Below, in pieces: positions 2,051 to 57,714 of a stretch of 62,153 nt of DNA. The stretch lies in the NCBI GenBank assembly GCA_964486155.1, contig CAZAKQ010000002.1:1-62153 (forward strand). Reading direction: 5' to 3'. Each line of letters begins with the position of its first letter. The first letter of the stretch is position 1. This DNA comes from an uncultured Candidatus Saccharibacteria bacterium (GTDB lineage: Bacteria > Patescibacteriota > Minisyncoccia > Phycocordibacterales > UBA12079). A program made the translations under genes and the position numbers. The notes under the pieces were generated by a model that saw only the letters and a program-made list of their open reading frames with translations, ran no database searches and was not told the DNA's origin.

Positions 2051-5000
2051 TTAACTCATATATCTTAAATATAAAATAGGAATTAAAATCAAAGTTATTA
2101 TAGTAGCAAAAGATAGTCCAAAAATAATAGAAAAAGCTAAAGGAGCCCACATAGTAGAAGCAAAAATTAAAGGAACCATACCTATAACCGTTGTTAAAGT
2201 AGTTAACAACACAGGCCTTAAACGAAGAGCAGACGATTCTAATACTATTTCTCTCAACGAAAGATCTCTTCGTTCTTTTTTCATATTATTCATAGTATCT
2301 ATTAAAATTATTTCGTTATTTACTACAATTCCTGCTAAAGCTATTACACCAATAAAAGAGGGAAAAGAAAAAGCGTTACCTGTTAAAGTCAATCCGAACA
2401 ATACACCAATTAGAGATAATAATACTCCTGCAATAATAAAAGAAGTCTGTTTAAATGAATCAAATTGCAAAACTAAAACAACAATTACAAAAATCATTCC
2501 AGCAATTAAAGCCAACAACATCTCTGTAAATGTTTTGGCTATATCCTCATTTTCCCCTCCTGTTTTTAAAATTATACCTTCGGGGATAATAAAACTTCCA
2601 TCTTCAATTTTAGACATAAATTTTTTATTCACTTCTATTGCGTTAGCTCCGTCTTTTAATTGACTAGAAACAACCGCTATTCTTTCTCCTTCTTCATGAC
2701 GAATTGAAGAATTATTTTTCTTTATAGAAACATCAATTAACGAACCTAACAAGATTGTTCCTGTCTGGGTCTTTATTTCCATTTGTCTAATAGAATCAAT
2801 AGTCGTTCTAGAAGTTAAATTAGGATCTATGTTTTCAGAATTTAAATTTAACTTAACCAAAACATCTATATCTTCTCCTTTTGTTTTAATAGTAGTCGCA
2901 TCAATTCCATAGATTGCAGTTCTTAAAATTTGAGCAATTTTAACTGGGGATAAATTATTTTCAGATAATTTGGCTCTATCAATTTTTAATTCAAACTCTA
3001 TTACAGAATCATTCATACTATTAGAAATATTTGTACTTCCTTTAATATCTTTTAAAATATCCTCTGCATCAATTACGACTTTCTCTAAATCTTGCAAATT
3101 CTCTCCAAAGAATTTTATTAAAATAGGTGCTTCTGAAGGAGGTCCCTCACTCGGCTGAGCTACAGTAACCTTAGCTGTATTAATTTCAGTTAATTCTTTT
3201 CTTAAAATCTCTACTAATTCCCAACTTGGTTTTTTTCTATCATCCTTGAGCAACACTGTAATATTTCCTAATTTTTCTCCTGAGCTAGATCCTGTTCCGC
3301 TAAATGCATTTGAAGATCCCACTGCCGTTGCAAAAGATTCAATATAGGGTTGTGAATACAAAATCTCTTCAACAATTCGAACCACCATATCAGTCTCGGC
3401 TAAAATAGTACCTTGATTCATCTCTATTTCAACATAAATAAAATCTAAATCTTCAGGTACAAATAAAGTAGTTTTTAATAATCCAGAAATAGGTAAAATA
3501 AAAGAGATTACCAAAAAAAATCCCATAGACCATAAAAATCTTTTCTGAAATTTTCTATTATTTAAAAGATGCTCCAATTTATTTCTATACCATTTTTGTA
3601 AATAAAAAGTATATTCAGTTTGTTTTTTAAATAAAAGATTATTCCTTGTATTTCCATTTTGTTTTAAAACAGACAAGGCAATTAAAGGAACTATCCCCAA
3701 GGCAACAAAAAGAGAAGCACATAAAATAAAAATAAGAGTATAAGGAATCCCTTTAATAAACTCTCCCATAATACCTGACAAGAAAAATAATGGGAAAAAA
3801 GCAGCGATAGTTGTCATAGTCCCAGAAGTTAAAGGTATATAGAATTCTTTTATTGTTTTAATAGCAGATTTCTTACCGTCCATTCCTTTTTTTATTTTAG
3901 TATGCATAGCCTCTGTTACAACAATTGCTGAATCAACCAAAATTCCTACCGCTAAAATTAAAGCAAATAATGATATAAAATTGATAGTATTACCAGTAGA
4001 ATATAAACCTACAAAAGCAATCAGAAATGAAAAAGGAATAGCTAATCCTGCAATTAATGCCTCTCGCCAACCAATAGTTAAATATAAAATTGAAATTACT
4101 AACAATATAGTTACTAAACCAGATGTAGATAAATTTCTCAAATCCTTATTTAAATATTCAGCTAAATCAATAGAGAATAGAACTTCTGCGCCATCAAGGA
4201 TTCCTCCTTCTTGCATTTCTTTTAATTCTTTTTTTACATTTTTTACTATTTTAGAAATATCTCCTCCTCTTTTCTTAAAAATGGAAAGAGAAACCGCTTG
4301 TTGAGACGGACTTCCATTTACACTTACTCTTGAAAAAGAAGTTCTTTGGCTAATTCCATCTGAAACAAAAGCCAAATCTCTAATATAAACTACCTCTCCT
4401 CCAATATTTAATACCGGAATATTTTTTATTTCTTCAGGATCAATAATATCTCCTTTAAATTTTAAAGGATATTTAATACCGTTTATTTCTATATCTCCAA
4501 TTGGCAGTGAAGAATTTGATTGTGAAATAGCTCTTGATAAATCAGAAATTTCTAAATTAAATTTAGACAAAGCAGATTGATCAACAATAACTTGAATCTC
4601 TCTTTCTGAAATCCCACTAGTAATTATCTTAGAAACACCGTTAATTGATTTTAAAGAATCTTCTACTTCTTCTGATAATTTTATAAATTCAGTTATGGGT
4701 AAATCGCTAGTTATAGATAACATTAAAATAGGTTGGTCAGCAAAATTAATATCTGAAACTATAGGATCTTCAGCTTCATCAGGTAACTCTGATTTAATTT
4801 TATCTATTTCATCTTTAACTTTTTGAATAGATTCTTGTATGTTAGCATCAGCATTAAATTCAGCGACTACAGAAGAAAAACCTTCACCCGAAGTAGAAGT
4901 TATTTTATTTAAAGTATCTAAATTATTTATTAATTGATTTTCAATCTTATTAGTAATCAATTTTTCAGTATCAGTAGCGAAAGCTCCTGGTAAATATGTA

Positions 5001-5146
5001 GAAATAATAGCTAGAGGAATTTGTATTTCTGGAGCTGATTCTTTAGTTATACTTATCAAAGAAAAAATACCCGACACAATCAGAGAAATTATCAAAAGAA
5101 TAGTGAAACTCTTTTTCTTTATAAAAAATATCCAAAAATTTTGCAT
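2051..5146 (-). CDS. RND-family efflux permease (AcrB/HAE-like)
   Basis: 1031 aa with a 12-TM-like architecture and two large extracytoplasmic loops. Typical AcrB-family N terminus, and an adaptor gene lies directly upstream. Confidence 0.85.
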   Translation of the reverse strand: MQNFWIFFIKKKSFTILLIISLIVSGIFSLISITKESAPEIQIPLAIISTYLPGAFATDTEKLITNKIENQLINNLDTLNKITSTSGEGFSSVVAEFNADANIQESIQKVKDEIDKIKSELPDEAEDPIVSDINFADQPILMLSITSDLPITEFIKLSEEVEDSLKSINGVSKIITSGISEREIQVIVDQSALSKFNLEISDLSRAISQSNSSLPIGDIEINGIKYPLKFKGDIIDPEEIKNIPVLNIGGEVVYIRDLAFVSDGISQRTSFSRVSVNGSPSQQAVSLSIFKKRGGDISKIVKNVKKELKEMQEGGILDGAEVLFSIDLAEYLNKDLRNLSTSGLVTILLVISILYLTIGWREALIAGLAIPFSFLIAFVGLYSTGNTINFISLFALILAVGILVDSAIVVTEAMHTKIKKGMDGKKSAIKTIKEFYIPLTSGTMTTIAAFFPLFFLSGIMGEFIKGIPYTLIFILCASLFVALGIVPLIALSVLKQNGNTRNNLLFKKQTEYTFYLQKWYRNKLEHLLNNRKFQKRFLWSMGFFLVISFILPISGLLKTTLFVPEDLDFIYVEIEMNQGTILAETDMVVRIVEEILYSQPYIESFATAVGSSNAFSGTGSSSGEKLGNITVLLKDDRKKPSWELVEILRKELTEINTAKVTVAQPSEGPPSEAPILIKFFGENLQDLEKVVIDAEDILKDIKGSTNISNSMNDSVIEFELKIDRAKLSENNLSPVKIAQILRTAIYGIDATTIKTKGEDIDVLVKLNLNSENIDPNLTSRTTIDSIRQMEIKTQTGTILLGSLIDVSIKKNNSSIRHEEGERIAVVSSQLKDGANAIEVNKKFMSKIEDGSFIIPEGIILKTGGENEDIAKTFTEMLLALIAGMIFVIVVLVLQFDSFKQTSFIIAGVLLSLIGVLFGLTLTGNAFSFPSFIGVIALAGIVVNNEIILIDTMNNMKKERRDLSLREIVLESSALRLRPVLLTTLTTVIGMVPLIFASTMWAPLAFSIIFGLSFATIITLILIPILYLRYMS

Positions 5147-5200
5147 GATAAGTTTATTTGAAAGTTTTAAATTTAAAAAAATTGCGGAGTATTTTTTATT

Positions 5201-6853
5201 TTATAAACTTTCAACTTTTTGCCCTTCTTTTAAACCTCTAGCATCAATCACTATTTCCATTTCAGCATTAACTCCTTCTTTTATAATTATTTTTTCTCCT
5301 AAAATTGGTCCTAAAATTATATGGTGAGAAACTAATTTGTCATCTTTATCTATAGTAAATACAACCACAGAATCTGTTCTAATTTTAATAGCTGAAATAG
5401 GAACAGAAAATTCTGATAATTCCTCATTTTCTTCTGATAAAACTCTTTCAACTAACAAAGATGTTGATTGACCATTAGTTAAAATTGTATTTTTATCATC
5501 TACTGCAATTTCTATTTTAATTTTCTTAGTTTTTGAATCCAATGCAGGAGCAATGTTTTTTACATAACCTTTCCATTTCTTATTAATTAGAACTTCAGAA
5601 CCATTTTTAATACTTTCTCTATCTTTCTCAGTAATATAAGATACAATTTCTAATTGATTATTATTAGCTACAATCAACACAGGAGCAAATGATGAAACAA
5701 AATCTCCTTTTTCTAAATTTAAAGAATTAATAGTACCACTTATAGGAGCTCGTATAATAGTTTTTTCATAAGCAGCCTTGGCTAAATCTAGCCCTGCTTT
5801 TGCTTGTTTTAATTGAGCTTCAGCACTAATTATATCTTCTGTTCTTTCGCCTATTAAAATTTGATCATAATTTAATTGGGCTATTTCTTTTGCAGAAACA
5901 ACAGAATTCAAACTATTTATAGCAGAAGAAATTGTTGAAGCGGTTAAATTTATAGATGAACGACTTACACTAATATTAGATTTCCAAGTATTAATAGTAG
6001 TTTCTGATAAATTAGAATTTGGAGATAAAACATTTACCGCCAAAGCTACTTGATCTAAAAATTTTCTAATTTGATTGATATTTTTCTTAGCTAATTCTAA
6101 AGCTTCAATTAAATTACCATCTACATCCAATGAAAACAAAAAACTCTCCCATTCCTCCAACATTTGTTCAATTAAAAATCTTTCCCATTCTATATCAATT
6201 TCTAATTGAGAGTCGTTCACAGAAAAAAGAACCTGAGGATTTGAGTCTCTAGGATCTCTGAACATAACATCTGTTTTATTTCTGACAGCATCATCAGCTT
6301 TTATATATGAATCATTTAATGTATTAATAATAGATACCTTAGTTTCATTTAATGAATTTTCACTATTATTTAAAGTTGCTTCTAAAATAGAAACTTGCTC
6401 ATCTCTAGCTCCTGTTTTGATTTTATTTAGAAAAGCAGCTGCAGATTCTACACTTGCCTCAGCTTGAATTAAAGAAGATCTTTGAGACCAATTATCTATT
6501 TCAGCAATTATTTGATTAGCCCAAACAAAATTCCCCTCTTTTTTATACAAAGCTATAATTTCTCCAGCACTCTGAGAATGAACTACAGCAGATGATTGAG
6601 ATTGAACTTTCCCTAACAAAGGTAAAAAAGTATTATCTAGAGTTAAGTCTCTAACAGTCATTGTTTTTACTTGTCTAATATTTTGAACAATTTTATCTTC
6701 TTCATTATTAATATTTTTTATAATAAATTGTTGGTAAATTACAAAAACCAGAATAAAGAAAATAACAGCTATTAAAATTTGCTGGTTTCTCTTCAGAGTT
6801 TTTATTTTTTGAATCCTATTTTGAACAGAATTTAAACTTAATATTTCTTTCAT
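5201..6853 (-). CDS. HlyD-family membrane-fusion (periplasmic adaptor) protein
   Basis: N-terminal TM, long coiled-coil region and a C-terminal beta-barrel-like region (IIRAPISGTINSLNLEKGDFV). Operon position upstream of the RND pump. Confidence 0.75.
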   Translation of the reverse strand: MKEILSLNSVQNRIQKIKTLKRNQQILIAVIFFILVFVIYQQFIIKNINNEEDKIVQNIRQVKTMTVRDLTLDNTFLPLLGKVQSQSSAVVHSQSAGEIIALYKKEGNFVWANQIIAEIDNWSQRSSLIQAEASVESAAAFLNKIKTGARDEQVSILEATLNNSENSLNETKVSIINTLNDSYIKADDAVRNKTDVMFRDPRDSNPQVLFSVNDSQLEIDIEWERFLIEQMLEEWESFLFSLDVDGNLIEALELAKKNINQIRKFLDQVALAVNVLSPNSNLSETTINTWKSNISVSRSSINLTASTISSAINSLNSVVSAKEIAQLNYDQILIGERTEDIISAEAQLKQAKAGLDLAKAAYEKTIIRAPISGTINSLNLEKGDFVSSFAPVLIVANNNQLEIVSYITEKDRESIKNGSEVLINKKWKGYVKNIAPALDSKTKKIKIEIAVDDKNTILTNGQSTSLLVERVLSEENEELSEFSVPISAIKIRTDSVVVFTIDKDDKLVSHHIILGPILGEKIIIKEGVNAEMEIVIDARGLKEGQKVESL

Positions 6854-16224: not shown

Positions 16225-17343
16225 TTAATTATTTATTGTTTTACTCCATCCTCTTTGAATCAAAGCTAAATTTTCATTTCTAGATTGTGGAATTTTTTCT
16301 ATAAAATCTTTATAAGCCTTAGTTTTTAATTCTTCCAACAATTCCGGATGTTGTTGAGCATTTTTAATACTTTCTGAAAAACATTTTTTATCACCTACAT
16401 CACACAATAAAGCGTTATTTCCTCTTAAAACTTCTCCTACTATACCTACCTTTGTTGTTAAGATAGGACAACGAGAAACAATAGCTTCAACTAACGCTAA
16501 TCCATATCCTTCATAATTAGAAGCTGATAAAAATAAATCTGCTGTTTTGTAGTAAGAAATTGGATCATCAGTCCAACTTTTAAAAATAATATTTTCTTCT
16601 AAGCCTTTTCTTCTGGCTAATTTCCTTAAATTTTTTCTTTGAGAACCACTTCCTACTATTATTAAACCCGTCTTGGGAAAAACTTTAACAATATCTTTCA
16701 TAGCTGAAATAATTAAGGAAATATTTTTTTCATCTTCTAAACGACTCATTGTTAAAGCTATAAATTTAAATTGAGGATATTTTTCTTTTAAAGAAAAACT
16801 TGGAACAGTCGCCTGAATCAAACTTACACTAGTAAAAATAGGAATTACAGAGATAGCTTTTCTTTGGATATTTCTAGGTAAAGATTGTTTAATTCTTTTA
16901 GAAACAACTCTTATATGATCTGCCTTAGATAAAAGAAATCTAGCTATAAAAGATCTTATTCTATTTAAGAAAGAGTGTTTTACAAAATATTTATTAAACA
17001 AATCTGTATGAATTTGTAATTCCAATTTAATTTTCAATTTCTTAGCAATTCTCCAAGCTATAAATCCTATTTCATAAGCATCTTGAGCAGATACTAAATC
17101 TACTCGGTCTAAATCAAAAGCTATCTTTTTAGCATCTCTAATATATGAAAATTTATTTTTTGAATTAGTAGGATGTAAATGAACATTAGCACTAATTTTT
17201 GTTTTATTAAAAGATTCATTTTCTTTATTTAAAACAATTACATCTATTCTATCAACTAACATTCCATAATTAAATAAGCGATTACGTACATCACTATTTT
17301 CTTCAAATAATTTACGATCTGTACTAATAATTAAAATATTCAT
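16225..17343 (-). CDS. glycosyltransferase family 1
   Basis: GT-B fold motifs (LSASNYEGYGLALVEAIVSRCPILTT). Confidence 0.8.
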   Translation of the reverse strand: MNILIISTDRKLFEENSDVRNRLFNYGMLVDRIDVIVLNKENESFNKTKISANVHLHPTNSKNKFSYIRDAKKIAFDLDRVDLVSAQDAYEIGFIAWRIAKKLKIKLELQIHTDLFNKYFVKHSFLNRIRSFIARFLLSKADHIRVVSKRIKQSLPRNIQRKAISVIPIFTSVSLIQATVPSFSLKEKYPQFKFIALTMSRLEDEKNISLIISAMKDIVKVFPKTGLIIVGSGSQRKNLRKLARRKGLEENIIFKSWTDDPISYYKTADLFLSASNYEGYGLALVEAIVSRCPILTTKVGIVGEVLRGNNALLCDVGDKKCFSESIKNAQQHPELLEELKTKAYKDFIEKIPQSRNENLALIQRGWSKTINN

Positions 17344-17463
17344 CCCGTTAGAGATAGTTTGTCAGAGACAAACTATCTCGAATTAAATTAATAACTTTTT
17401 GTTTCCGTTTTATCTATACTAATAATAAATATTTATTCTCACCAAATCTCTAACGGAATTCAT
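17342..17463 (-). promoter_or_regulatory. leader cassette copy a: mini-ORF plus arm abutting the GT start codon
   Basis: Distal ATGAATTCCGTTAGAGAT opens MNSVRDLVRINIYY* (17463..17419). Proximal ATCTCTAACGGGATG ends at the start codon at 17343. Confidence 0.6.
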
Positions 17464-17552
17464 TGTCTTTAGTATATCAAAAACATAGATGAAAAGCTTT
17501 ACCTTTTTATCTGAGTTTTAATACCTGTCCGCCTCAGGCGGGTTTTTAAACC

Positions 17553-18644
17553 CTAATATTTTAATATTTGAACTAAATTATCTAGAGTTTTTTCTATAGA
17601 AAATTGCTTAGATTTATTAAAAGCATTTTGAGTTATCTTTTTTCTAAATTCATCATTCCCTAGAATCTTTATTATCGCACTTAATATTTGCTCTTTGTTA
17701 TTAGGCTTAATTAAAATTCCATCCATATTATCCTGAATTAATTCAGGATTACCTCCAATGTTGGTTGTAATAATTGGAACTTTTAACTTAGCTACTTCAA
17801 TTAATTGATGAGCAAAACCTTCATATTGTGTATTTAAGATAAAAATATTAACTTTTTTAATTAATTTTAAAACTTTTTCTCTCTCCAATTTACCTATTAA
17901 AAAAACTTTGTCTTTTAAATCTAAAATTTTAATTATTTTCTCTAGTTCTTCTCGTTGTGGGCCTTCTCCTACTATTTTCAATTTCAAATTAGGATAATAT
18001 TTTAGAATTTCAGGCATACTTTTAATCAAAACATCAAAACCTTTCCAAGGAACTAATCTCCCTACCGACAATAGCACTTTTTTATCACTTGGGGGTAGCA
18101 CCCCCAAGTCTTTAGAAAGTTCTATTCCGTTATAGATTACTTTAATTTTTTCTGACTCTATTCCCCAATTTTCAATTATTCCCTTAAAATATTTACTTGG
18201 TACTATTATAGACTCAGCAGTAGAAGCTACTTTTTTTTGAATCTTTTTTAAAATTTTAACTTTCCAATTATATTTACTATATTCTAAACAAAAATCATCT
18301 AAATTATCTTTAACTCCAAATCTCTGCACTCCTTGTTCCCAAGCATAGTCTCCAGCCACCCGTATTAAAAATCTTTTTTTTAAAATCTTATTAGCCAACA
18401 TAGTTGGTAAACCTACACTTACAGGATCTTGGGCATAAATAATATCTACTCTCTTAGATCTTTTTAAAATTTTGAAGAAATAAACAAAATGCCTAATTAT
18501 TTTAGGTAAATAACGCACTTCTCCAAAAGGCAAAACCTCCACTTTTATTCCTCTTTCTGGTAATTTATCAAAAAGCAACTTTGAGTAAGTTGCAGGTCCT
18601 CCAATATCTGGCGGATATATCCCTGTAGTAATTAATATTTTCAT
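17553..18644 (-). CDS. glycosyltransferase family 4
   Basis: MKILITTGIYPPDIGGPATY N terminus and an EGFAHQLIEVAKLKVPIITT motif. Confidence 0.85.
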   Translation of the reverse strand: MKILITTGIYPPDIGGPATYSKLLFDKLPERGIKVEVLPFGEVRYLPKIIRHFVYFFKILKRSKRVDIIYAQDPVSVGLPTMLANKILKKRFLIRVAGDYAWEQGVQRFGVKDNLDDFCLEYSKYNWKVKILKKIQKKVASTAESIIVPSKYFKGIIENWGIESEKIKVIYNGIELSKDLGVLPPSDKKVLLSVGRLVPWKGFDVLIKSMPEILKYYPNLKLKIVGEGPQREELEKIIKILDLKDKVFLIGKLEREKVLKLIKKVNIFILNTQYEGFAHQLIEVAKLKVPIITTNIGGNPELIQDNMDGILIKPNNKEQILSAIIKILGNDEFRKKITQNAFNKSKQFSIEKTLDNLVQILKY

Positions 18645-18703
18645 CTCTCTATTATACCAAAAAAGCCTTAAATTATAAGTGATATTATGCTAAACTGAGT
18701 TTT

Positions 18704-18806
18704 ATGAATCCCGTTAGATATTGTAACTTTTTTCACAAATAACGGAATTTTAAATTTAGGTAAACTACAATATGCAAAAAGAAAGAAAAAAAATCTCTAA
18801 CGGGAT
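18704..18806 (+). promoter_or_regulatory. leader cassette copy b
   Basis: Distal ATGAATCCCGTTAGATAT opens MNPVRYCNFFHK* (18704..18742). Proximal ATCTCTAACGGGATG ends at ATG 18805. Confidence 0.6.
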
Positions 18807-24286: not shown

Positions 24287-25756
24287 CTATTCTTTATGAT
24301 TTTCTGAATCTAATTTTGTAGTATAACTCATTCCTACTACGGCGACTAAAACAATTCCTCCTAACACAAAACTCCATTTATTTATAGGAAATTTAAAACC
24401 TTCTTCTTTTTTAGCTTCTCCATTGTCATTCATAATCTCGGAAGGTTCAACCTCCCGAGATTTACTAATTGTGGCAATTTGATTATTTGAGATATTTTCA
24501 ATCTTATCTACTGGTTTTTCTACTGAATATAAAACAGGAACTTTTGGAACTACTTCAACTTCTTCTTTAATAAAGCTAGAGACTTCATTTTTTATATTTG
24601 AATTTTCTTTTTTTTCAAAATTAAAAGCTAATATACCATTTGGATAAAGTAATTGAACAATTGAATTTTCTTTTGGTAATAAACCGCTAACACTATAAGG
24701 TAATTTTAAGTAACTCTTTGGGAGTAAAATAGTGTTTTTAGGCAAAGTAAAATAATTATTATCTACTCTCAAACGCCACCAAGATAAATTAATTTCATAT
24801 TTAGAAGAATTATAAAGCTCTATAAAATTATCATTAAAATCTATTTTAACATTAGAAATAATTATTTCTGAAGGAATTACTTCTATTTTTAATTTATCAC
24901 TAGTAGAATATTCTCCTGAAATAACTTCTAATACAAGCATATATTTACCTGGATAAGCATAATTATGTAAAACACTTTGTCCTTTTCCTTTAGTTCCATC
25001 TCCAAACGACCATTGATAAAGAGCGTTTTCCAAAATTTCATTTTCCAAACCAAGAGCTTTTCCTGAAAAAGTAAAATCAGCTCCAACAATAGGTAAATAT
25101 TCTAAAGAATCAATTTTAGCCTTTATATTTACTTCAATAAATACTGGATTTGTACTTTGAGAAGAAGTAGGTGTAGGTTCTTGTATTTTTTCAAATACAG
25201 ATCCTTCTTCATTTTCAATATTTTCTATAAAGTTAATTTTTCCTAAACTAGGACTAGAAGATATCCACTCTCCAGAAATTTTTTGTAATGATTTTCCATC
25301 TCCATTAGCTCCCCAATCAGACAAATAATCAACAGAATCAATATCTATTAAATCTAAGTTTCTTATAACTAAAAGTTCGCCTGAGTTTTTTAAAGAAAAA
25401 GATGTATCTAAAATCAATCCTGCAAAATTTGGATTATCTCCATAAAATTTATCAGGATTATCTACTAAAATTGCATAATCTCCTCCAGACAAAATAGTAT
25501 TTCCTCCTTCTGATATAGATTTTATTTTATGATTGGTTTCTGCTTCATATAATTTCCACTTACTCAAGTCAACATCACTAGTTCCTGAGTTATAGACTTC
25601 TATCCACTCTCTTCCGCTATCACTCCCTATCTCTAAATCATACATTATTTCAGTAATTTCTATTTGAGCTAAAAGCAAATTAACTGGATAAAATAAAAAA
25701 CAAAAAACGACTGTTATTAGTCGTTTTTTATTTAATTTTAAAAACAATTTAAACAT
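24287..25756 (-). CDS. surface protein with lamin-tail-like (LTD) and PKD-like domains and a C-terminal TM anchor
   Basis: ITEIMYD..EWIEVYN and FIELYN..WWRL LTD-like segments, a WSFGDGTKG PKD motif, a signal peptide and a C-terminal hydrophobic helix. Confidence 0.65.
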   Translation of the reverse strand: MFKLFLKLNKKRLITVVFCFLFYPVNLLLAQIEITEIMYDLEIGSDSGREWIEVYNSGTSDVDLSKWKLYEAETNHKIKSISEGGNTILSGGDYAILVDNPDKFYGDNPNFAGLILDTSFSLKNSGELLVIRNLDLIDIDSVDYLSDWGANGDGKSLQKISGEWISSSPSLGKINFIENIENEEGSVFEKIQEPTPTSSQSTNPVFIEVNIKAKIDSLEYLPIVGADFTFSGKALGLENEILENALYQWSFGDGTKGKGQSVLHNYAYPGKYMLVLEVISGEYSTSDKLKIEVIPSEIIISNVKIDFNDNFIELYNSSKYEINLSWWRLRVDNNYFTLPKNTILLPKSYLKLPYSVSGLLPKENSIVQLLYPNGILAFNFEKKENSNIKNEVSSFIKEEVEVVPKVPVLYSVEKPVDKIENISNNQIATISKSREVEPSEIMNDNGEAKKEEGFKFPINKWSFVLGGIVLVAVVGMSYTTKLDSENHKE

Positions 25757-27533
25757 CTTCTTTAGGTTTTTCTACATATAATATATCTTCTAAATCTTTT
25801 TTAGAAACTTCTTTATTTTGATTTTGTTCTAATACTTCTTTTGATTTCTGAATTATTGTATTCTCCTGCTCATTTTCTCTTTTAGAATTTAATGAAGACA
25901 TAGTTTTTTGTTGATGTGAGTTTTGTTTTACTGAATTCGTTTGTTTTGAAACTTCTAACCCATCTACAAATTGCTGATTAGACGATTTAAGTTCTTGTGA
26001 TTTGTTGTTCTTCAACTCCAAATTCTTCATCGCTTCAGAAAGAGCTTCTTTCAACTGATTTTTATTATCAATAGGAATTTTAGTTCTTGTTGACTTAGAT
26101 TTTAAATGACTAGTTTTGTTATTAGACAAATCTTTTAAAGAAATCTTTTTATTTTTTAATTTAGAGTAAGTTTGGATCTTAGGAGCACTTTGTTTAAAAT
26201 TATTTTTGTTAGATTGTATTTTAGTTTTAGCAATTATTTTAGTTGAATTAAGCCATTCTTCAATTTTTTCTTCCACCATTTTTTTAGGACTAGCAAAATT
26301 TTCACGAGAATATTTTATTATTTCATCTTTATATGAAAAATCTGGTTTAGTAATAGGAGGAAGAGTTCTTGCAGAAAAAGGATTAGAACCTATTCCATCA
26401 ATCATCAGTCTCAAATAAATTTGAGCAAAACCTAAATTAACCAAATCTTCAGCTGTAAATTCGGGAGAAAATTCTTTTTCTAATTGTTCGGCATCTGTAG
26501 CTCCTACTCTAAAAGTAATCATAGTTCCTACGTTTCCAAACACAGCAGCACGGACTACTTCGGGCATTTGTTCAATATATTGATGAGCTAAAGTCAAATT
26601 TAACTTGTATTTTCTAGCTTGAGATAATATATCAGCGAAAGAATCATTAGCTAGATTCTGAAATTCATCAATATATAAATAAAAATTAGGAAGTTTCGCT
26701 AATTCTTCTGTCCTTACATCGGCCCTACTCATCGCAGCTAAATATATCTTTGTAGTTAACATAGAACCTAATAAATCCGCGTTAGCTTCGCCTACTTGTC
26801 CTATAGAAAGATTAACCAAAAGAATCTTTTTACTATCTAAAACATCTCTAAAATCAAAAGAAGATTTTTCTTGCCCTACAATATTTCTAATTAAAGGATT
26901 AGAAGTAAATTGTCCCACTTTATTTAAAATAGCAGCATAAGCATCTTTTCTATATCGCTCATCCCATCCAGCAAATTCTTCAGTCCAAAAAGCTTTAACG
27001 GAAGGATCAGTAATATTAGCTACTACTTTTTTCCTATATTTAGCATCCGTAAATATTTTAGTCATTCCTAACATAGTAGATCCTGGATATTCTAAAAGAG
27101 CCAACAAAGTATTATTAGTAATATGTTCCATTCTATCCGAAAAAGTATCCTCTCCCCAAATCTTTTTAAAAGCAGAAAGAAGCCCTTGAGCAACTAAATG
27201 TCTTTTATCTGGACCAACATCTTCCATCACATTGAAAGAAATAGGATTATCAACATCAAAAGGAGCAAAATAAATTACATCTTCAATTCTCTCTTCAGGG
27301 ACATAATCTAAAAACTTTTTAATAGATTGCCCATGGGGATCAATAAAACACATACCATTTCCTTCTTTAATATCTTGAACAGCCATATTTTCTAACATAG
27401 TGGACTTTCCCATCCCTGTTTTACCTATAACATAAATATGTCGTGTTCTGTCTGAAGCTTTAATCCCAAAAGGAGTTCGTCTATTTCGTCGATCAATTTC
27501 AGCAAAATATGTAATTGAGTTAGTATCTTTCAT
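25749..27533 (-). CDS. TraD/VirD4-like (FtsK/HerA superfamily) P-loop ATPase with a low-complexity tail
   Basis: Walker A GKTGMGKST and Walker B LYIDEFQN. No N-terminal TM. C-terminal ~170 aa are K/N/S/Q-rich. Confidence 0.65.
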   Translation of the reverse strand: MKDTNSITYFAEIDRRNRRTPFGIKASDRTRHIYVIGKTGMGKSTMLENMAVQDIKEGNGMCFIDPHGQSIKKFLDYVPEERIEDVIYFAPFDVDNPISFNVMEDVGPDKRHLVAQGLLSAFKKIWGEDTFSDRMEHITNNTLLALLEYPGSTMLGMTKIFTDAKYRKKVVANITDPSVKAFWTEEFAGWDERYRKDAYAAILNKVGQFTSNPLIRNIVGQEKSSFDFRDVLDSKKILLVNLSIGQVGEANADLLGSMLTTKIYLAAMSRADVRTEELAKLPNFYLYIDEFQNLANDSFADILSQARKYKLNLTLAHQYIEQMPEVVRAAVFGNVGTMITFRVGATDAEQLEKEFSPEFTAEDLVNLGFAQIYLRLMIDGIGSNPFSARTLPPITKPDFSYKDEIIKYSRENFASPKKMVEEKIEEWLNSTKIIAKTKIQSNKNNFKQSAPKIQTYSKLKNKKISLKDLSNNKTSHLKSKSTRTKIPIDNKNQLKEALSEAMKNLELKNNKSQELKSSNQQFVDGLEVSKQTNSVKQNSHQQKTMSSLNSKRENEQENTIIQKSKEVLEQNQNKEVSKKDLEDILYVEKPKEDV

Positions 27534-28388: not shown

Positions 28389-28820
28389 TCAATTTCTTTT
28401 CTTGTATTTTTCATCTATTTGATTTAGAAAATCCCATCTACCTTTTCCTACAATCGGGGGCATTCCACATTTTAAAACAATCTCCATTCCATCCCAAAAA
28501 GTAACTCTGTTCTTTTTCTTTTCTACCATTTCTAAAATATTTTCATATTTGTCAAAATCAATATCATTAGCTACTTTAATTACTGTAGATTTACTTACAC
28601 TTAAAATTTTATGAATACGATACATAGATACTTTTTCGTATAACATAAAAATTATAGATAGTCGTTTAGCTAAAACTATTTTTTCAGATTCTGTTAATAA
28701 ATCATCTAAAAATCCTTTAGCTGAAGTATTAGTTTCCAAATCAGCAACAATATTAACTAAACGACTATTTATTTTGTTCGAAACATTTTTCTTTAATTTA
28801 TTTTTTGAAACATTAACCAT
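28389..28820 (-). CDS. TrpR/YerC-like helix-turn-helix protein (paralog 1)
   Basis: LLTESEKIVLAKRLSII..YRIHKILSVSKSTVIKV resembles the TrpR-family HTH. Paralog at 35706..36152. Confidence 0.6.
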   Translation of the reverse strand: MVNVSKNKLKKNVSNKINSRLVNIVADLETNTSAKGFLDDLLTESEKIVLAKRLSIIFMLYEKVSMYRIHKILSVSKSTVIKVANDIDFDKYENILEMVEKKKNRVTFWDGMEIVLKCGMPPIVGKGRWDFLNQIDEKYKKRN

Positions 28821-31672: not shown

Positions 31673-31724
31673 AAATTAAAATCTTTATTACTCCAATCGA
31701 TTGGAGTAATAAAGATTTTAATTT
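31673..31724. repeat. 52-bp perfect palindrome, core tactCCAATCGATTGGagta
   Basis: Symmetry checked base by base across 26 pairs. Confidence 0.9.
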
Positions 31725-31733
31725 TGATTTCAC

Positions 31734-31767
31734 TGAACCACCTATGAGAATCAAACTAACGACCTAT
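31734..31767 (-). pseudogene. degenerate copy of the tRNA-Thr(CGU) T-arm/3' end
   Basis: ataggtcgttagtttgattctcataggtggttca compared with the tRNA's gtaggtcatgagttcaattctcatcttcggct. The T stem has a mismatch, and there is no 5' half. Confidence 0.4.
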
Positions 31768-31782
31768 AGTTTATCCCGTTAG

Positions 31783-31855
31783 AGCCGAAGATGAGAATTG
31801 AACTCATGACCTACGCGTTACGAGTGCGTTGCTCTACCAACTGAGCTACTTCGGC
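31783..31855 (-). tRNA. tRNA-Thr (anticodon CGU)
   Basis: Cloverleaf folded by hand: acceptor gccgaag/cttcggc, anticodon loop ctCGTaa, T arm atgag-ttcaatt-ctcat. Confidence 0.85.
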
Positions 31856-31861
31856 TAAATG

Positions 31862-35705: not shown

Positions 35706-36152
35706 CTATTTCTTATTCTTATATTTTTTAATATTATATTTTTCATAAATTTCATCTAAGATATTCCATTGCCCCGCTCCTACAATAGAAGGTATCCCCA
35801 TTTTTAAAACCAAATCCATTCCTTTCCAAAAAGTCATTCTATTTTTTCTCAGTCTAACTATTCTCAAAATATATTTATATTTATCTAAATTAATATCTTG
35901 AGAAACTTTTTTTACAGTAGTATCACTTACCTTTATCAATTCAGAAATTCTATACCAACTTAAATTTTCTTGAAGCATAAAAATGATAGCTAATCTCTTT
36001 GCTAAAGTTATTTTTTCTGACTCAGTTAACAATTCATTTAAAAAGTTCTTTGTAGAGGAATTGGTTTCTAAACTAGTAATTACATTAATCAAACGATTAT
36101 TAATATGCTCAGAAACACCTTTTTTTAATTTTTGTTTAGAAACATTAACCAT
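35706..36152 (-). CDS. TrpR/YerC-like helix-turn-helix protein (paralog 2)
   Basis: MVNVSKQKLKKGVS..LLTESEKITLAKRLAIIFML. About half the residues match paralog 1 by eye. Confidence 0.6.
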   Translation of the reverse strand: MVNVSKQKLKKGVSEHINNRLINVITSLETNSSTKNFLNELLTESEKITLAKRLAIIFMLQENLSWYRISELIKVSDTTVKKVSQDINLDKYKYILRIVRLRKNRMTFWKGMDLVLKMGIPSIVGAGQWNILDEIYEKYNIKKYKNKK

Positions 36153-50703: not shown

Positions 50704-50721
50704 TATTATATCATATACTTA

Positions 50722-50806
50722 ATGAATCCCGTTAGAGATTACGGGGATAATTGTTATCAATTTAATTTAAGATAGTTTACCAAAAATAACCTATCTCTAA
50801 CGGGAT
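50722..50806 (+). promoter_or_regulatory. leader cassette copy c (upstream of comF)
   Basis: Distal ATGAATCCCGTTAGAGAT opens MNPVRDYGDNCYQFNLR* (50722..50775). Proximal ATCTCTAACGGGATG ends at ATG 50805. The arms are 14/14 complementary. Confidence 0.65.
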
Positions 50807-53124: not shown

Positions 53125-54132
53125 TTATCGTGTATATCTAAGTGTATTCCATCTATCTAAGTAAATCATTTCTAAATTATGTTCATCTAATTTTACTATT
53201 TCATATACAAAAGGATCTAATCCTGGGGTAACTGCAAATAAATATTTACCATTTTCATCTTCAGGAGTTTCTCTTGTTATTGGATATTCATTATAAAGAA
53301 GAAAAGGTCCTTCTATCATAGAGACTCCATCGTAAAAATCTACTTTATATTTATCACTGAAATCTAAAATAGATTTTTCATCGTCAACTGAAATCCACCG
53401 TCCTTTTATTTTTTCATAATTATTAGAAATTTCAAGATTTTGATCATTCAACTCAATAGTATCTACTACTTCATCAAAAGAATTAAACCAACTCTGAGCT
53501 TCTTCCGAACCTTTCCCTTCCTTTAAACTATTATAGAAAGCATCTATTTTATCAAAATTCCAAATTAATTGATCTCCACAATTTTCTTCATTCTTTTCAA
53601 AATATTCTGACATAGTTGGAATAATTAAATCTTTATTTCCTTTTAAGGTTATAATAATTCTTCTATCATTTTTAAAAAATAAAGCTTTCCTTTCTAAAGT
53701 TACATCACAAATCTCAAAACGACTTAAAACCATATATTCTTGAGCATTAATTCCTTTTAAATCTCTGACTTTTTTTGAAATTTCCAATTCCCAATCATGT
53801 TCAGTTCCATATTCTCCCTTTTTCAAAGACTCTACTGTACTTAAAACATCTTCTTTGTCAAAACTTGGATAATCTAAATCATCTATTTTCGTATTTTCAA
53901 CCAAAAGCTGAGTTTCTCTTCCTGCGAAAGAGACACTATGTGGATATTTTAAAAATAAATCAGTTCCTTCTATTTCATAGAAATTCCATAAATCTGTTTC
54001 ATTTTCTATAGCCTTAGCTTGTCCACTTTGGTTAAACTCCTGTTCCTCTTTATTTTCTATAGAGCCTACTAAAAAACTTAGTCCAAATACTATTAATAGT
54101 ATTACTCCTAATAATATTAAAATGTTTTTCAT
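53125..54132 (-). CDS. hypothetical secreted protein
   Basis: Signal-peptide-like N terminus MKNILILLGVILLIVFGLSF. No motif recognised. Confidence 0.5.
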   Translation of the reverse strand: MKNILILLGVILLIVFGLSFLVGSIENKEEQEFNQSGQAKAIENETDLWNFYEIEGTDLFLKYPHSVSFAGRETQLLVENTKIDDLDYPSFDKEDVLSTVESLKKGEYGTEHDWELEISKKVRDLKGINAQEYMVLSRFEICDVTLERKALFFKNDRRIIITLKGNKDLIIPTMSEYFEKNEENCGDQLIWNFDKIDAFYNSLKEGKGSEEAQSWFNSFDEVVDTIELNDQNLEISNNYEKIKGRWISVDDEKSILDFSDKYKVDFYDGVSMIEGPFLLYNEYPITRETPEDENGKYLFAVTPGLDPFVYEIVKLDEHNLEMIYLDRWNTLRYTR

Positions 54133-54236
54133 CCCGTTAGAAATAATTCACTATTAGCAAACAATCTCAGTTAATTTATAATTTTAATTCCCGTTTTTTA
54201 TCCAAATTACAAAATCAAATCTCTAACGGGATCCAT
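54131..54236 (-). promoter_or_regulatory. leader cassette copy d
   Basis: Distal ATGGATCCCGTTAGAGAT opens MDPVRDLIL* (54236..54207). Proximal ATTTCTAACGGGATG ends at the start codon at 54132. Confidence 0.6.
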
Positions 54237-54278
54237 AATATTTTCGTTAATTACTAAACTTAATTTGATTGTAACACA

Positions 54279-57411: not shown

Positions 57412-57641
57412 AAAACCAAAGCTATCTGCTTTGGTTTTAAGTATTTTAAATTCAGGACTCGGTCCCCAGTTCTAAGTTCAGACTTCGTCCTTCGGAACTC
57501 GTCTTCACTAAGAACTCTTGACCTCGCTCAGTCGTATTTCCCTTCACTTCGTTACGGGAAATTTACTCCTTCGTTTCGAGTCCTGCCACACGCTAAAATA
57601 CTAAAAACCAAAACTAAACGCTTTGGTTTTAAGTATTTTAG
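57412..57641 (-). other. tRNA-3'-end-associated structured module B
   Basis: Inverted copy of the tRNA-Ile 3' end at 57577-57593. Hairpin at 57536-57562. CTTGACCTC at 57517-57525. Distal direct copy of the T-loop segment plus terminator hairpin at 57412-57461. Confidence 0.6.
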
Positions 57642-57714
57642 TGCGTGTGCCAGGACTCGAACCTGGGACCACAGAGGTATAAGCTCTGCGCTCTACCAAC
57701 TGAGCTACACACGC
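57642..57714 (-). tRNA. tRNA-Ile (anticodon UAU)
   Basis: Acceptor gcgtgtg/cacacgc, anticodon stem cagag/ctctg, loop ctTATac, T arm ccagg-ttcgagt-cctgg. Confidence 0.85.

Follow-up and report, generated by a model that had tools for sequence, protein, structure and literature searches.

Miniature mobile elements resting on start codons of Patescibacteria genes and a candidate ribosome relay to the rebuilt AUG

The stretch of DNA analyzed here, which we call the window, is a 62-kb contig (27.9% GC, assembled from many samples) of an uncultured Candidatus Saccharibacteria bacterium. Four of its genes, among them genes for a glycosyltransferase, a comF-like protein, and a secreted protein, are each preceded by a short element with inverted terminal arms that ends inside the start codon of the gene. 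A scan with the arm ATYTCTAACGGGAT, allowing up to two mismatches, returned 10 matches against 1.0 expected, a number reached in 0 of 100 shuffles. Eight of the ten belong to four inverted pairs, and all four of the cassettes that the original prediction had placed in the window were recovered in this way. The ninth is a solo half site directly after a tRNA-Thr gene, also foreseen and present as a 12-nt exact match, and the tenth, at 18124 inside a gene, is a chance match. The four elements, a to d, are 81 to 118 nt long with 14-nt inverted arms, and each ends in GGGAT, the final AT of which joins the following G to form the start codon of a real gene (Table 1). The open reading frames (ORFs) opened in this manner by a, b, c, and d encode 372, 181, 224, and 335 amino acids, respectively. 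In addition, ATGA or ATGG stands directly 5' of every distal arm in the window copies. Taken as a whole, the locus and the family to which it belongs are probably best explained by a mobile start-codon element from which ribosomes are relayed to the true AUG.

The ATG(A/G) ahead of the distal arm had been regarded as part of the cassette. Our results assign it differently: this ATG(A/G) and the G(A/G) that follows the proximal arm are one duplicated target sequence. Evidence comes from an orthologue of gene a in L122 (L-numbers are labels of collected loci), which shares 63% amino acid identity and has no element. Its start region reads TACAAT-aattct-ATGAATATATTA, with ATGAATATA following TACAAT-aattct where the occupied window counterpart has GAATATT after the element. 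The occupied site itself reads TATACT-aaagaca-ATGA, the 118-nt element, and then GAATATTTTA, and both proteins begin MNIL. In a second relative, L121 (71% identity), the gene a orthologue is likewise without an element. The same metagenome-assembled genome (MAG) that contains L121 also contains L144, and there a homologous element occupies the corresponding position ahead of the gene d orthologue. One site is therefore polymorphic and another is shared between close relatives. A query with the comF-like gene for further empty sites found no relatives, and the gene d query gave this filled orthologue instead.

The family was collected from one genome per species by requiring both arms to be exact and 45 to 75 nt apart, and host taxa are the depositors' own record labels. 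The same paired arms occur at no fewer than 120 loci in many Patescibacteria lineages, which does not fit the initial view of a local regulatory leader. Among the matches listed, almost all host labels are Patescibacteria; they include Nomura-, Zambryski-, Kaiser-, Campbell-, Niyogi-, Azam-, Wildermuth-, and Portnoybacteria (Paceibacteria/Parcubacteria), along with Uhr-, Kerfeld-, Komeili-, Moranii-, and Doudnabacteria and Saccharimonadales; a few of the bins listed are labeled Planctomycetota, Smithellaceae, Gammaproteobacteria, or Nitrospiraceae. The elements measure about 74 to 120 nt, rarely about 190 nt, and are noncoding except for accidental ORFs of 6 to 35 codons. Their 14-bp terminal inverted repeats (ATCCCGTTAGAnAT ... 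ATnTCTAACGGGAT) have a core, CCGTTAGA, that hardly varies. The insertion layout is AT-NN-(ATCCCG...CGGGAT)-NN-A, which corresponds to a target AT-NN-A with NN repeated on both sides. The flanking dinucleotides are identical in 89 of the 103 copies at gene starts (GA 69, GG 15, GT 3, GC 2), with AT before them at frequencies of 0.94 and 0.95 and A after them at 0.98. In about 90% of copies NN is GA or GG, so that the target, ATG(A/G)A, is a start codon plus two bases.

Within one MAG, interiors that are 93 to 94% identical occur at unrelated genes whose flanks have random-level identity (L114/L115, L019/L103), and successive copies in the tandem arrays of L031 and L141 have the dinucleotide in common. 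Near-identical dispersed copies, flank repeats, an empty site, and tandem arrays are hallmarks of a non-autonomous transposable element. The proposal that the cassette is repeated and mobile is thus borne out by the direct repeats at its flanks, the empty orthologous site, and the near-identical copies at unrelated genes. We conclude that the elements are a non-autonomous mobile family of the miniature inverted-repeat transposable element (MITE) type: five of the six features that define such families are present, and the sixth, an autonomous partner, was not found in about 1 Mb. Pfam families of the genes called between about 7.5 and 52.5 kb of the window (about 45 kb) include no transposase or recombinase domain. 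In the viral collection there was only one match, L131:3125-3205, which is not at a gene start and whose flanks are not a clean direct repeat. The 2-bp repeats indicate a mobilizing step in which a cut or crossover is staggered by 2 bp. Both a DDE transposase that duplicates 2 bp and a crossover of the serine-recombinase kind are compatible with such a stagger. The presence of GA and GT at related copies of a single genome (L107 and L113, respectively) favors true target duplication over an inherited core.

Several variants of the family deserve separate description. Tandem arrays of two or three elements separated only by a common GA lie at L031:278-677 and L141:3594-3857, and L031 also holds members of the longer class of about 190 nt (488-677, 2470-2658, 5825-6010). 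A subfamily with the same arms has a conserved GC-rich interior holding two hairpins (plus strand, L025:1500-1599, L037:5417-5515, L039:1523-1621, L053:3280-3379; minus strand, L052, L055, L061, L098). Its members are flanked by ATAA...AAA in one orientation, with an AA flank in 8 of 8, and are located at stop codons (L098) or in leaders (L037) rather than at start codons; this subfamily might be a functional RNA or the family's master copy. Searched against Rfam 15, the window gave only tRNAs and tmRNA at gathering score, with the elements unmatched, and searches of the elements (E up to 10) and of the GC-rich subfamily loci (E up to 1) gave only subthreshold miRNA-like or hairpin noise. The contigs with labels outside Patescibacteria are L007, L008, L036, and L068 (Planctomycetota), L017 and L100 (Smithellaceae), L043, L056, and L091 (Gammaproteobacteria), and L089 (Nitrospiraceae), and their GC contents range from 37 to 58%. 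Elements on these bins could reflect true spread to other phyla or binning error. A C-G variant at arm position 12 is found in both Pirellulales bins (L036, L068) and in L092 and L111, labeled Parcubacteria and Moraniibacteriota. Finally, in L121, the relative without element a, a two-gene cassette (5140-5650, ORFs of about 80 to 90 amino acids) resembling a toxin-antitoxin pair lies between the two glycosyltransferase genes, in the intergenic region corresponding to the site of element a in the window.

The family resides at start codons. Among 127 copies, 115 rebuild ATG, which follows from the element ending in AT and the repeated dinucleotide starting with G, and in 103 of these the ATG begins a frame that stays open for 50 codons or more or to the edge of the locus; the corresponding proportion for random ATGRA sites of the same loci is 33%. 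Gene starts were assigned by crude ORF-based calls. The ATG at the 3' junction is the true start, as orthologues confirm, and the copy at the 5' junction keeps the original initiation context. Canonical N-termini stand behind the elements, including those of ribosomal proteins L9 (MKVILIKDV...), L31 (MKKNIHPTY...), L21, L15, L2, and L35, as well as those of GreA, DnaJ, GlyRS, MetRS, DnaA, FtsH, ClpP, LigA, and adenylate kinase (Adk). A Pfam search with 91 downstream proteins returned 123 families, many of them housekeeping, with no common function and no resistance theme. So many families argue against a regulon, and because many host genes are essential, the element must be compatible with good expression. 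Instead of the random orientation and position that the original prediction associated with a plain MITE, we found position and polarity to be constant in more than 100 independent loci.

This residence exceeds what the target alone would give. The window contains 28 ATGRA sites at gene starts (24 free and 4 occupied), 46 at other intergenic positions, and 346 in coding sequence. If only coding insertions were purged, about 38% of copies would be expected at starts, compared with the roughly 90% observed. Either the machinery senses more than ATGRA, or other intergenic sites are under stronger counterselection. Preferential reuse of the same genes was rejected, because 8 orthologous pairs among 99 are close to chance (roughly 7 to 16 by our own estimate). 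We also rejected targeting of transcription starts as a general rule, despite TGnTATAAT-N6-8-ATG before many copies: some 31 nt separate gene d and its orthologue from their promoter, and an upstream ORF ends within a few nucleotides of about half of the copies. With leaderless, operon-coupled, and gene d-type hosts considered together, what the sites share is the start codon rather than the start of transcription.

How ribosomes reach the host genes bears on what an insertion would do. A motif like the Shine-Dalgarno (SD) sequence stands 5' of the distal ATG in 11 of 99 copies, and in 16% of the element-free genes of the same loci. A TANNNT box lies 5 to 9 nt 5' of the distal ATG in 41 of 85 copies, compared with 12 of 85 at control spacing and 28% in element-free genes. 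The window genome has TGnTATAAT-N6-7-ATG at many genes, and elements a, b, and c follow that layout; a two-hexamer promoter scan missed the -10 box of element a owing to its poor -35. SD-like GGAG or AGGA occurs at only a few window genes (e.g., 141, 22997, 27644). By the look of these sequences, leaderless mRNAs probably dominate in the window genome. Gene d is not leaderless: it has a short, A-rich leader lacking an SD, with the same promoter placing in its L144 orthologue. Internal operon genes host about half of the copies. The stop codon of the upstream ORF falls within the distal ATGA in 10 copies, coincides with the UAG of the distal arm in another 6, and precedes the ATG by 1 to 7 nt in many more. 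The host genes would therefore appear to be mostly leaderless or coupled stop-to-start with the upstream gene, with short SD-less leaders as a third class, and in all three classes the original ribosome-delivery context would stay on the distal ATG copy. In 24 of 99 copies TAATTT is found 8 nt 5' of the ATG, which might suggest that the proximal arm holds an outward promoter. This is unlikely, given that the -10 of native promoters is extended (TGn), and reading an alignment by eye revealed no such extension ahead of the TAATTT boxes.

The pairing of the arms was as originally described, with 14 of 14 complementary positions in c, a U.G pair in a, a G.U pair in d, and a single U-C mismatch in b. 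In predicted minimum-free-energy RNA folds, all four window copies form the long-range 14-bp stem (z from -1.5 to -3.9 relative to shuffles). The stem had been expected to occlude the start of the gene from -14 to +2; it does take in the start codon, though the extent we compute is -12 to +2, and it begins 1 nt after the distal AUG codon. To look at compensatory change, we permitted up to two mismatches per arm with the arms treated independently, which reduced 158 copies to 26 distinct variants. Across these variants 96.7% of cells are paired, and 5 of the 14 pairs (positions 2, 3, 12, 13, and 14) have changed on both sides, whereas all slid controls collapse. Doubly changed cells number 20 against 4.5 in shuffles, and the observed value was reached in 0 of 500 shuffles. 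The check for compensatory changes that had been proposed thus finds pairing kept through them. At position 12 the pair is A-T in 70 cases, G-C in 19, T-A in 3, and C-G in 3, and whole subfamilies have compensated arms (ACCCCG..CGGGGT, AGTCCG..CGGACT, AGAAGC..GCTTCT).

The arms are also conserved in place. In the old orthologous pair formed by element d and its L144 counterpart, the arms differ at 2 of 28 positions, compared with identities of about 60% in the interior and 50% in the 5' leader. In two species, L011:3915-4022 and L018:3476-3583 have in common a 108-nt block that is 100% identical, with flanks at 82 to 84%; besides the entire 85-nt element, the block takes in 12 nt of the promoter region and 9 nt at the beginning of the gene. 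Such identity means that the element is strongly constrained over its full length or that a conversion tract arose recently. Both comparisons point to arms that are constrained where they sit. The constraint could act on RNA, on single-stranded DNA, or through a protein.

Although the arms are symmetric, the polarity of the interior relative to the gene is always the same. The interior is highly variable and usually has a partial third copy of the proximal arm (ACGGGA). The motif CGGGR is found in the sense orientation in 31 of 99 interiors and in the antisense orientation in none, and a relaxed version of the motif gives 57 versus 3. Folding of the 5' part of the element (AUGA, distal arm, and interior) is stronger than when its interior is shuffled (mean z -1.61, p 6e-15), with pairing of the distal arm at 0.59 as opposed to 0.46. 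The 3' part (interior and proximal arm) has no folding excess (z -0.01). With an excess on the 5' side and none on the 3' side, it is the distal arm alone for which the interior has a complement. These folds suggest that the internal motif may act as an anti-sequestor: it would pair ahead of the synthesis of the proximal arm, so that the true AUG stays accessible for some time. The 5' hairpin was also considered as an intrinsic terminator and rejected; a stem-loop was flagged in element c, and the T-run is inconsistent in a, b, and d.

A short ORF starts at the distal arm in 94 of 127 copies, and translation of the four in the window gave exactly the peptides reported before. The mini-ORF exists because insertion duplicates ATG(R). 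What is constant in it, the six initial codons M-N/D-P-V-R-N/D, is the distal arm itself, read in the frame that the 2-nt repeat sets; the distal AUG is followed by AAU or GAU and not by a stop. Everything further varies. Length ranges from 6 to 35 codons, the three frames relative to the gene are represented 38/33/28 times, and stops fall anywhere from -87 to +1. Two frames have built-in stops, the UAA in the proximal arm (-7, 20 copies) and the UGA of AUGA (+1, 4 copies), and no mini-ORF extends beyond +1 except in rare in-frame fusions such as L110. In that locus (3150-4250), adding 2 to the element length gives a multiple of 3, no stop interrupts the frame, and the distal ATG would give a glycosyltransferase-like protein an N-terminal extension of 28 amino acids.

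These properties suggest how a gene could tolerate such an insertion. Our preferred model of expression, to which we would give something just short of an even chance, is a relay. In genomes that seldom use SD sequences, ribosomes would come from a leaderless 5' end or by termination and reinitiation from an upstream gene, and after insertion they would still be delivered to the distal AUG. There they would translate the accidental short ORF, whose first six codons are the distal arm, and thereby melt the 14-bp stem, since any ribosome starting at the distal AUG necessarily reads the whole distal arm. Release would occur at or before the true AUG, via the UAA at -7 or the UGA of AUGA, and the true AUG would then serve either for reinitiation or for initiation while the site is transiently open. 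Once transcribed, the internal ACGGGA could pair with the distal arm, so that the proximal arm and its AUG would be free during the first rounds of translation. Such a relay would be the same SD-independent coupling that these genomes appear to use between ordinary operon genes. It is plausible that the opening of the stem by translation is a relay of this kind and not a regulatory switch. An insertion that is nearly transparent to expression would explain how the elements persist on essential genes.

Several observations weigh against the relay and the wider reading that includes it. Every step of the expression model is drawn from sequence, and the loci were chosen by a perfect-arm pattern at 45- to 75-nt spacing, so that the sample favors intact copies. 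A stable helix 5 nt after a 5'-terminal AUG should itself hinder leaderless initiation there. About 10% of copies stand before intact genes without a distal ATG (e.g., L015, with ATA, L042, L075, L089, L108, L114), and translation of the mini-ORF therefore cannot be obligatory; in others it stops up to 87 nt 5' of the true AUG, which is far for reinitiation. The excess at start codons is unexplained by a relay alone and needs targeting or stronger selection elsewhere. In a strand test at position 12, 6 loci have G.U in the sense strand and 2 have A.C, and a hand tally over all arm positions gives roughly 13 G.U and 8 A.C, which is not significant; it could accordingly be in DNA, not in RNA, that pairing counts. 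Co-evolution with a transposase is another possible source of compensatory change in terminal repeats. Finally, no arm pairs 215 to 5000 bp apart, as an autonomous parent would have, were present in the approximately 1 Mb of collected loci.

The relay could be part of a more ambitious scheme, which we regard as doubtful. Here the family would be a start-codon-homing transposable hairpin that makes insertion at ATG-RA invisible to expression, with its own AT rebuilding the start, a decoy AUG that retains native ribosome delivery, stops in the two out-of-frame frames, and an anti-sequestor. Targeting would work through a feature of the initiation region or through conservative recombination at a 2-bp core, and the element would have spread through most Patescibacteria and possibly other phyla. 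In the strongest form of this scheme, the initiating ribosome or fMet-tRNA would be passed from decoy to true AUG across the hairpin, or cleavage of the hairpin would restore a leaderless mRNA. We attach only a small probability to an initiation-stage bypass between two AUGs.

Of the explanations that dispense with a relay, the one that survives best is a plain selfish MITE, and we consider it unlikely. A transposase would simply prefer ATGRA, the ORF would be left intact, SD-less initiation at the proximal AUG would tolerate structure, and stem, polarity, and internal motif would all be needs of transposition. The AT-NN-A target is indeed also used away from start codons (the AA-flanked subfamily; L041, beside a tRNA), the 8 orthologous pairs agree with random choice of genes (roughly 7 to 16 on our estimate), the G.U counts (6 versus 2 at position 12, roughly 13 versus 8 overall) do not reach significance, and terminal repeats co-evolving with a transposase can mimic covariation. 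Yet it predicts about 38% of copies at real gene starts from the allowed ATGRA sites, not about 90%. A 31:0 polarity requires transcript-level selection or directional insertion, and the excess pairing is limited to the distal arm on the sense strand. Furthermore, the old orthologous copy of element d has kept its arms and its 3' local hairpin in a leader that has been randomized, and the L011/L018 element is 100% identical between flanks at 82 to 84%.

Alternatively, the transcript could be processed, which to us seems quite improbable. An endoribonuclease recognizing the stem, or a structure-specific RNase, would cut the hairpin at its 3' base, the mRNA would restart at the true AUG, and the mini-ORF would be irrelevant. 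Classical RNase III substrates are longer than a 14-bp helix, the helix here has only 14 bp with no consistent extension, and we know of no RNase with a cleavage site precisely at the 3' foot of a stem. Moreover, the internal operon genes that carry about half of the copies have no need of a new 5' end. In favor of processing, the hosts are largely leaderless, so that a 5'-terminal AUG is what their translation apparatus would expect; the arms are constrained in situ and in sequence beyond pairing, which fits recognition by a protein; and intact genes also follow copies without a distal ATG. There is precedent in the reported RNase III processing of Neisseria Correia elements (PMC2649163).

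The original prediction had favored an attenuator of the erm/cat type with a dedicated leader peptide, in which a nascent peptide or an inducer stalls the leader ribosome, the stem opens, and the gene is switched on. Our results make this very improbable. In its favor, the start codon is within the predicted stem, 94 of 127 copies have a short ORF opening at the distal arm, and the distal arm has a predicted alternative pairing partner in the interior. However, the peptide is unconserved past the six arm codons, with length, frame (38/33/28), and stops all scattered. The empty site identifies the distal ATG as target duplication, making the mini-ORF its product, and this ATG is gone in about 10% of copies. 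The 123 Pfam families, which include ribosomal proteins and aminoacyl-tRNA synthetases, suggest no common inducer logic. Lastly, an inverton, in which a recombinase acting on the arms would invert the short segment between them as an on/off switch for surface or competence genes, has almost no chance of being correct: inverted repeats do lie directly 5' of glycosyltransferase, comF-like, and secreted-protein genes in the window, and the tandem junction GGGAT-GA-ATCCC is like a serine-recombinase site with a 2-bp core, but interior polarity is fixed in 99 loci, five independent assemblies of the window population have the same orientation, the native promoter is outside the repeats (no extended -10 was seen in the interiors in an alignment read by eye), the arms are merely 46 to 90 bp apart, and the hosts include essential genes.

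Table 1. Elements a to d, the genes they precede, and associated features of the window.
Feature	Position	Strand	Remarks
Element a arms	17342-17355 / 17446-17459	-	inverted pair
Element b arms	18708-18721 / 18793-18806	+	inverted pair
Element c arms	50726-50739 / 50793-50806	+	inverted pair
Element d arms	54131-54144 / 54219-54232	-	inverted pair
Element a with duplicated target	17342-17463	-	distal ATGA 17463-17460; distal arm 17459-17446 ATTCCGTTAGAGAT; proximal arm 17355-17342 ATCTCTAACGGGAT
Gene a, glycosyltransferase, 16225-17343	true start codon 17343-17341	-	L122 and L121 orthologues start MNIL at the same residue, without element
Extended -10 box TGaTATACT, native leaderless promoter of gene a	17471-17479	-	7 nt 5' of element a distal ATG; layout as in the L122 empty site
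Accidental mini-ORF of element a	17419-17463	-	translation MNSVRDLVRINIYY, then stop
Internal ACGGAA motif, element a	17403-17408	-	partial third proximal-arm copy, able to pair with distal arm
Element b with duplicated target	18704-18806	+	distal ATGA 18704-18707; distal arm 18708-18721 ATCCCGTTAGATAT; proximal arm 18793-18806; true gene start 18805
Extended -10 box TGcTAAACT	18688-18696	+	7 nt 5' of element b distal ATG
Accidental mini-ORF of element b	18704-18742	+	translation MNPVRYCNFFHK, then stop
Internal AACGGAAT motif, element b	18741-18748	+	
Element c with duplicated target	50722-50806	+	distal ATGA 50722-50725; distal arm 50726-50739; proximal arm 50793-50806, 14/14 complementary
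Gene c, comF-like (Pribosyltran domain)	true start 50805	+	
-10 box TATCAT	50709-50714	+	7 nt 5' of element c distal ATG; TTTCCA-18-TATCAT
Accidental mini-ORF of element c	50722-50775	+	translation MNPVRDYGDNCYQFNLR, then stop
Local 5' hairpin, element c	50727-50746	+	distal-arm TCCCGT with internal ACGGGG; alternative to long-range stem
Element d with duplicated target	54131-54236	-	distal ATGG 54236-54233; distal arm 54232-54219; proximal arm 54144-54131 ATTTCTAACGGGAT
Gene d, secreted protein, 53125-54132	true start codon 54132-54130	-	homologous element at the same place in the L144 orthologue
Extended -10 box TGtTACAAT	54268-54276	-	about 31 nt 5' of element d distal ATG; kept as TGTTATAAT in L144
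Accidental mini-ORF of element d	54207-54236	-	translation MDPVRDLIL, then stop; L144 orthologue encodes MNPVKDLM, then stop
Internal ACGGGAAT motif, element d	54187-54194	-	
Solo proximal-type arm CTCTAACGGGAT, then AAA	31773-31784	-	12-nt exact match directly after tRNA-Thr(CGT)

Other features of the window were noted in passing. The solo arm looks like a remnant of an element copy. In this region (31720-31860, minus strand), the tRNA-Thr(CGT) gene is followed by the arm and then by a degenerate copy of the tRNA's own 3' half, GGTCGTTAGTTTGATTCTCATAGGTGG versus GGTCATGAGTTCAATTCTCATCTTCGG, an arrangement that looks like the scar of integration or recombination at the 3' end of the tRNA. Two paralogues of the Trp_repressor family (PF01371), at 28389-28820 and 35706-36152, both start MVNV, and a third copy lies just beyond about 28.4 kb; one of these paralogues is near a gene for a TrwB-type coupling protein (25749-27533). 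A complete type IV pilus cluster occupies about 39 to 50 kb. Finally, a tRNA-Ile with anticodon TAT (UAU) is located at 57641-57714, an uncommon bacterial way of reading AUA.

As far as a limited literature search shows, this would be the first mobile element that normally rests on the start codon itself, and its hosts include essential genes throughout a vast radiation of uncultured bacteria. The family amounts to a natural experiment on SD-poor translation, with more than 100 genes having a hairpin of 80 to 120 nt between the arrival of the ribosome and the true AUG, and it makes leaderless initiation, reinitiation, and scanning in Patescibacteria directly testable. There are also consequences for annotation, since the family systematically misleads start calls and its decoy ORFs may get called as genes. 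For example, gene b begins within the element, at 18772, in public gene calls (192 amino acids), which makes it 11 codons too long relative to the start at 18805 given by the family pattern. More generally, the 14-nt arms provide a cheap marker of the family and point to a widely shared mobilizing enzyme.

We found no description of these elements in the searchable open-access literature, either by sequence strings or by keywords, and in a 2024 review of MITEs the terms "start codon," "leaderless," and "Patescibacteria" do not occur. The nearest relatives in kind are the Correia elements (CREE, also NEMIS) of Neisseria, which duplicate TA and have repeats of 26 bp, and to our knowledge there is no report of their inserting at start codons. 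They are described as short, noncoding, gene-adjacent inverted repeats in many copies whose cotranscribed hairpin can alter expression (PMC2649163, PMC2229807, PMC10969869), and which can create promoters at their ends and bind IHF and RNase III (PMC2649163). The elements described here are likewise short and noncoding, with terminal inverted repeats, a 2-bp flank repeat, dispersed copies, and a hairpin beside genes. Unlike Correia elements, they have a start-codon target, AT-NN-A, in which the codon is duplicated and rebuilt, their polarity is fixed, and they are found in many classes of one radiation.

Known mechanisms of translation offer further parallels, and unmasking by an upstream ORF is, with Correia elements, the closest match to how the family would work. 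Translational coupling can involve termination and reinitiation at ATGA or UAAnnnnAUG, and in RNA phage MS2 long-range masking is opened by upstream translation. Similarly, our elements have a start codon in a stem whose partner strand is inside an upstream ORF, with stops at -7 and +1. In those systems, however, a real upstream gene evolved in place, whereas here the ORF was made by insertion and has no conserved product. The likeness to erm/cat attenuators is a short leader ORF ahead of a start region predicted to be held in a hairpin; the differences are that no stalling peptide is conserved, there are no resistance genes and no SD, and the leader ORF is a target duplication. Translational bypass operates at the coding gap of T4 gene 60, which is on a mobile element, and at the "byp" elements of Magnusiomyces mitochondrial genes. 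Like these, our elements would be mobile inserts neutralized by the ribosome, with a hairpin after the first of two matched codons, here AUG(R) in 89 of 103 copies. Bypass, by contrast, takes place within ORFs with a peptidyl-tRNA and a stop after take-off; here the codon is an initiation codon, no stop follows it, and the insert is 80 to 120 nt.

With respect to mobilization, hix and gix are crossover sites of serine recombinases with a 2-bp core, and a non-palindromic core would fix the orientation of insertion. The tandem junction TCTAACGGGAT-GA-ATCCCGTTAGA is like these and like IS607-family sites in being a perfect palindrome around a 2-bp core, a symmetry that follows equally from a 2-bp target duplication. 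It is unlike the IS607 family in that no linked recombinase gene was seen in the annotated part of the window and the dinucleotide varies among related copies in one genome. What sets the family apart from all of these comparators is its start-codon target, the rebuilding of that codon by the element's own end, a fixed polarity, and wide phylogenetic breadth.

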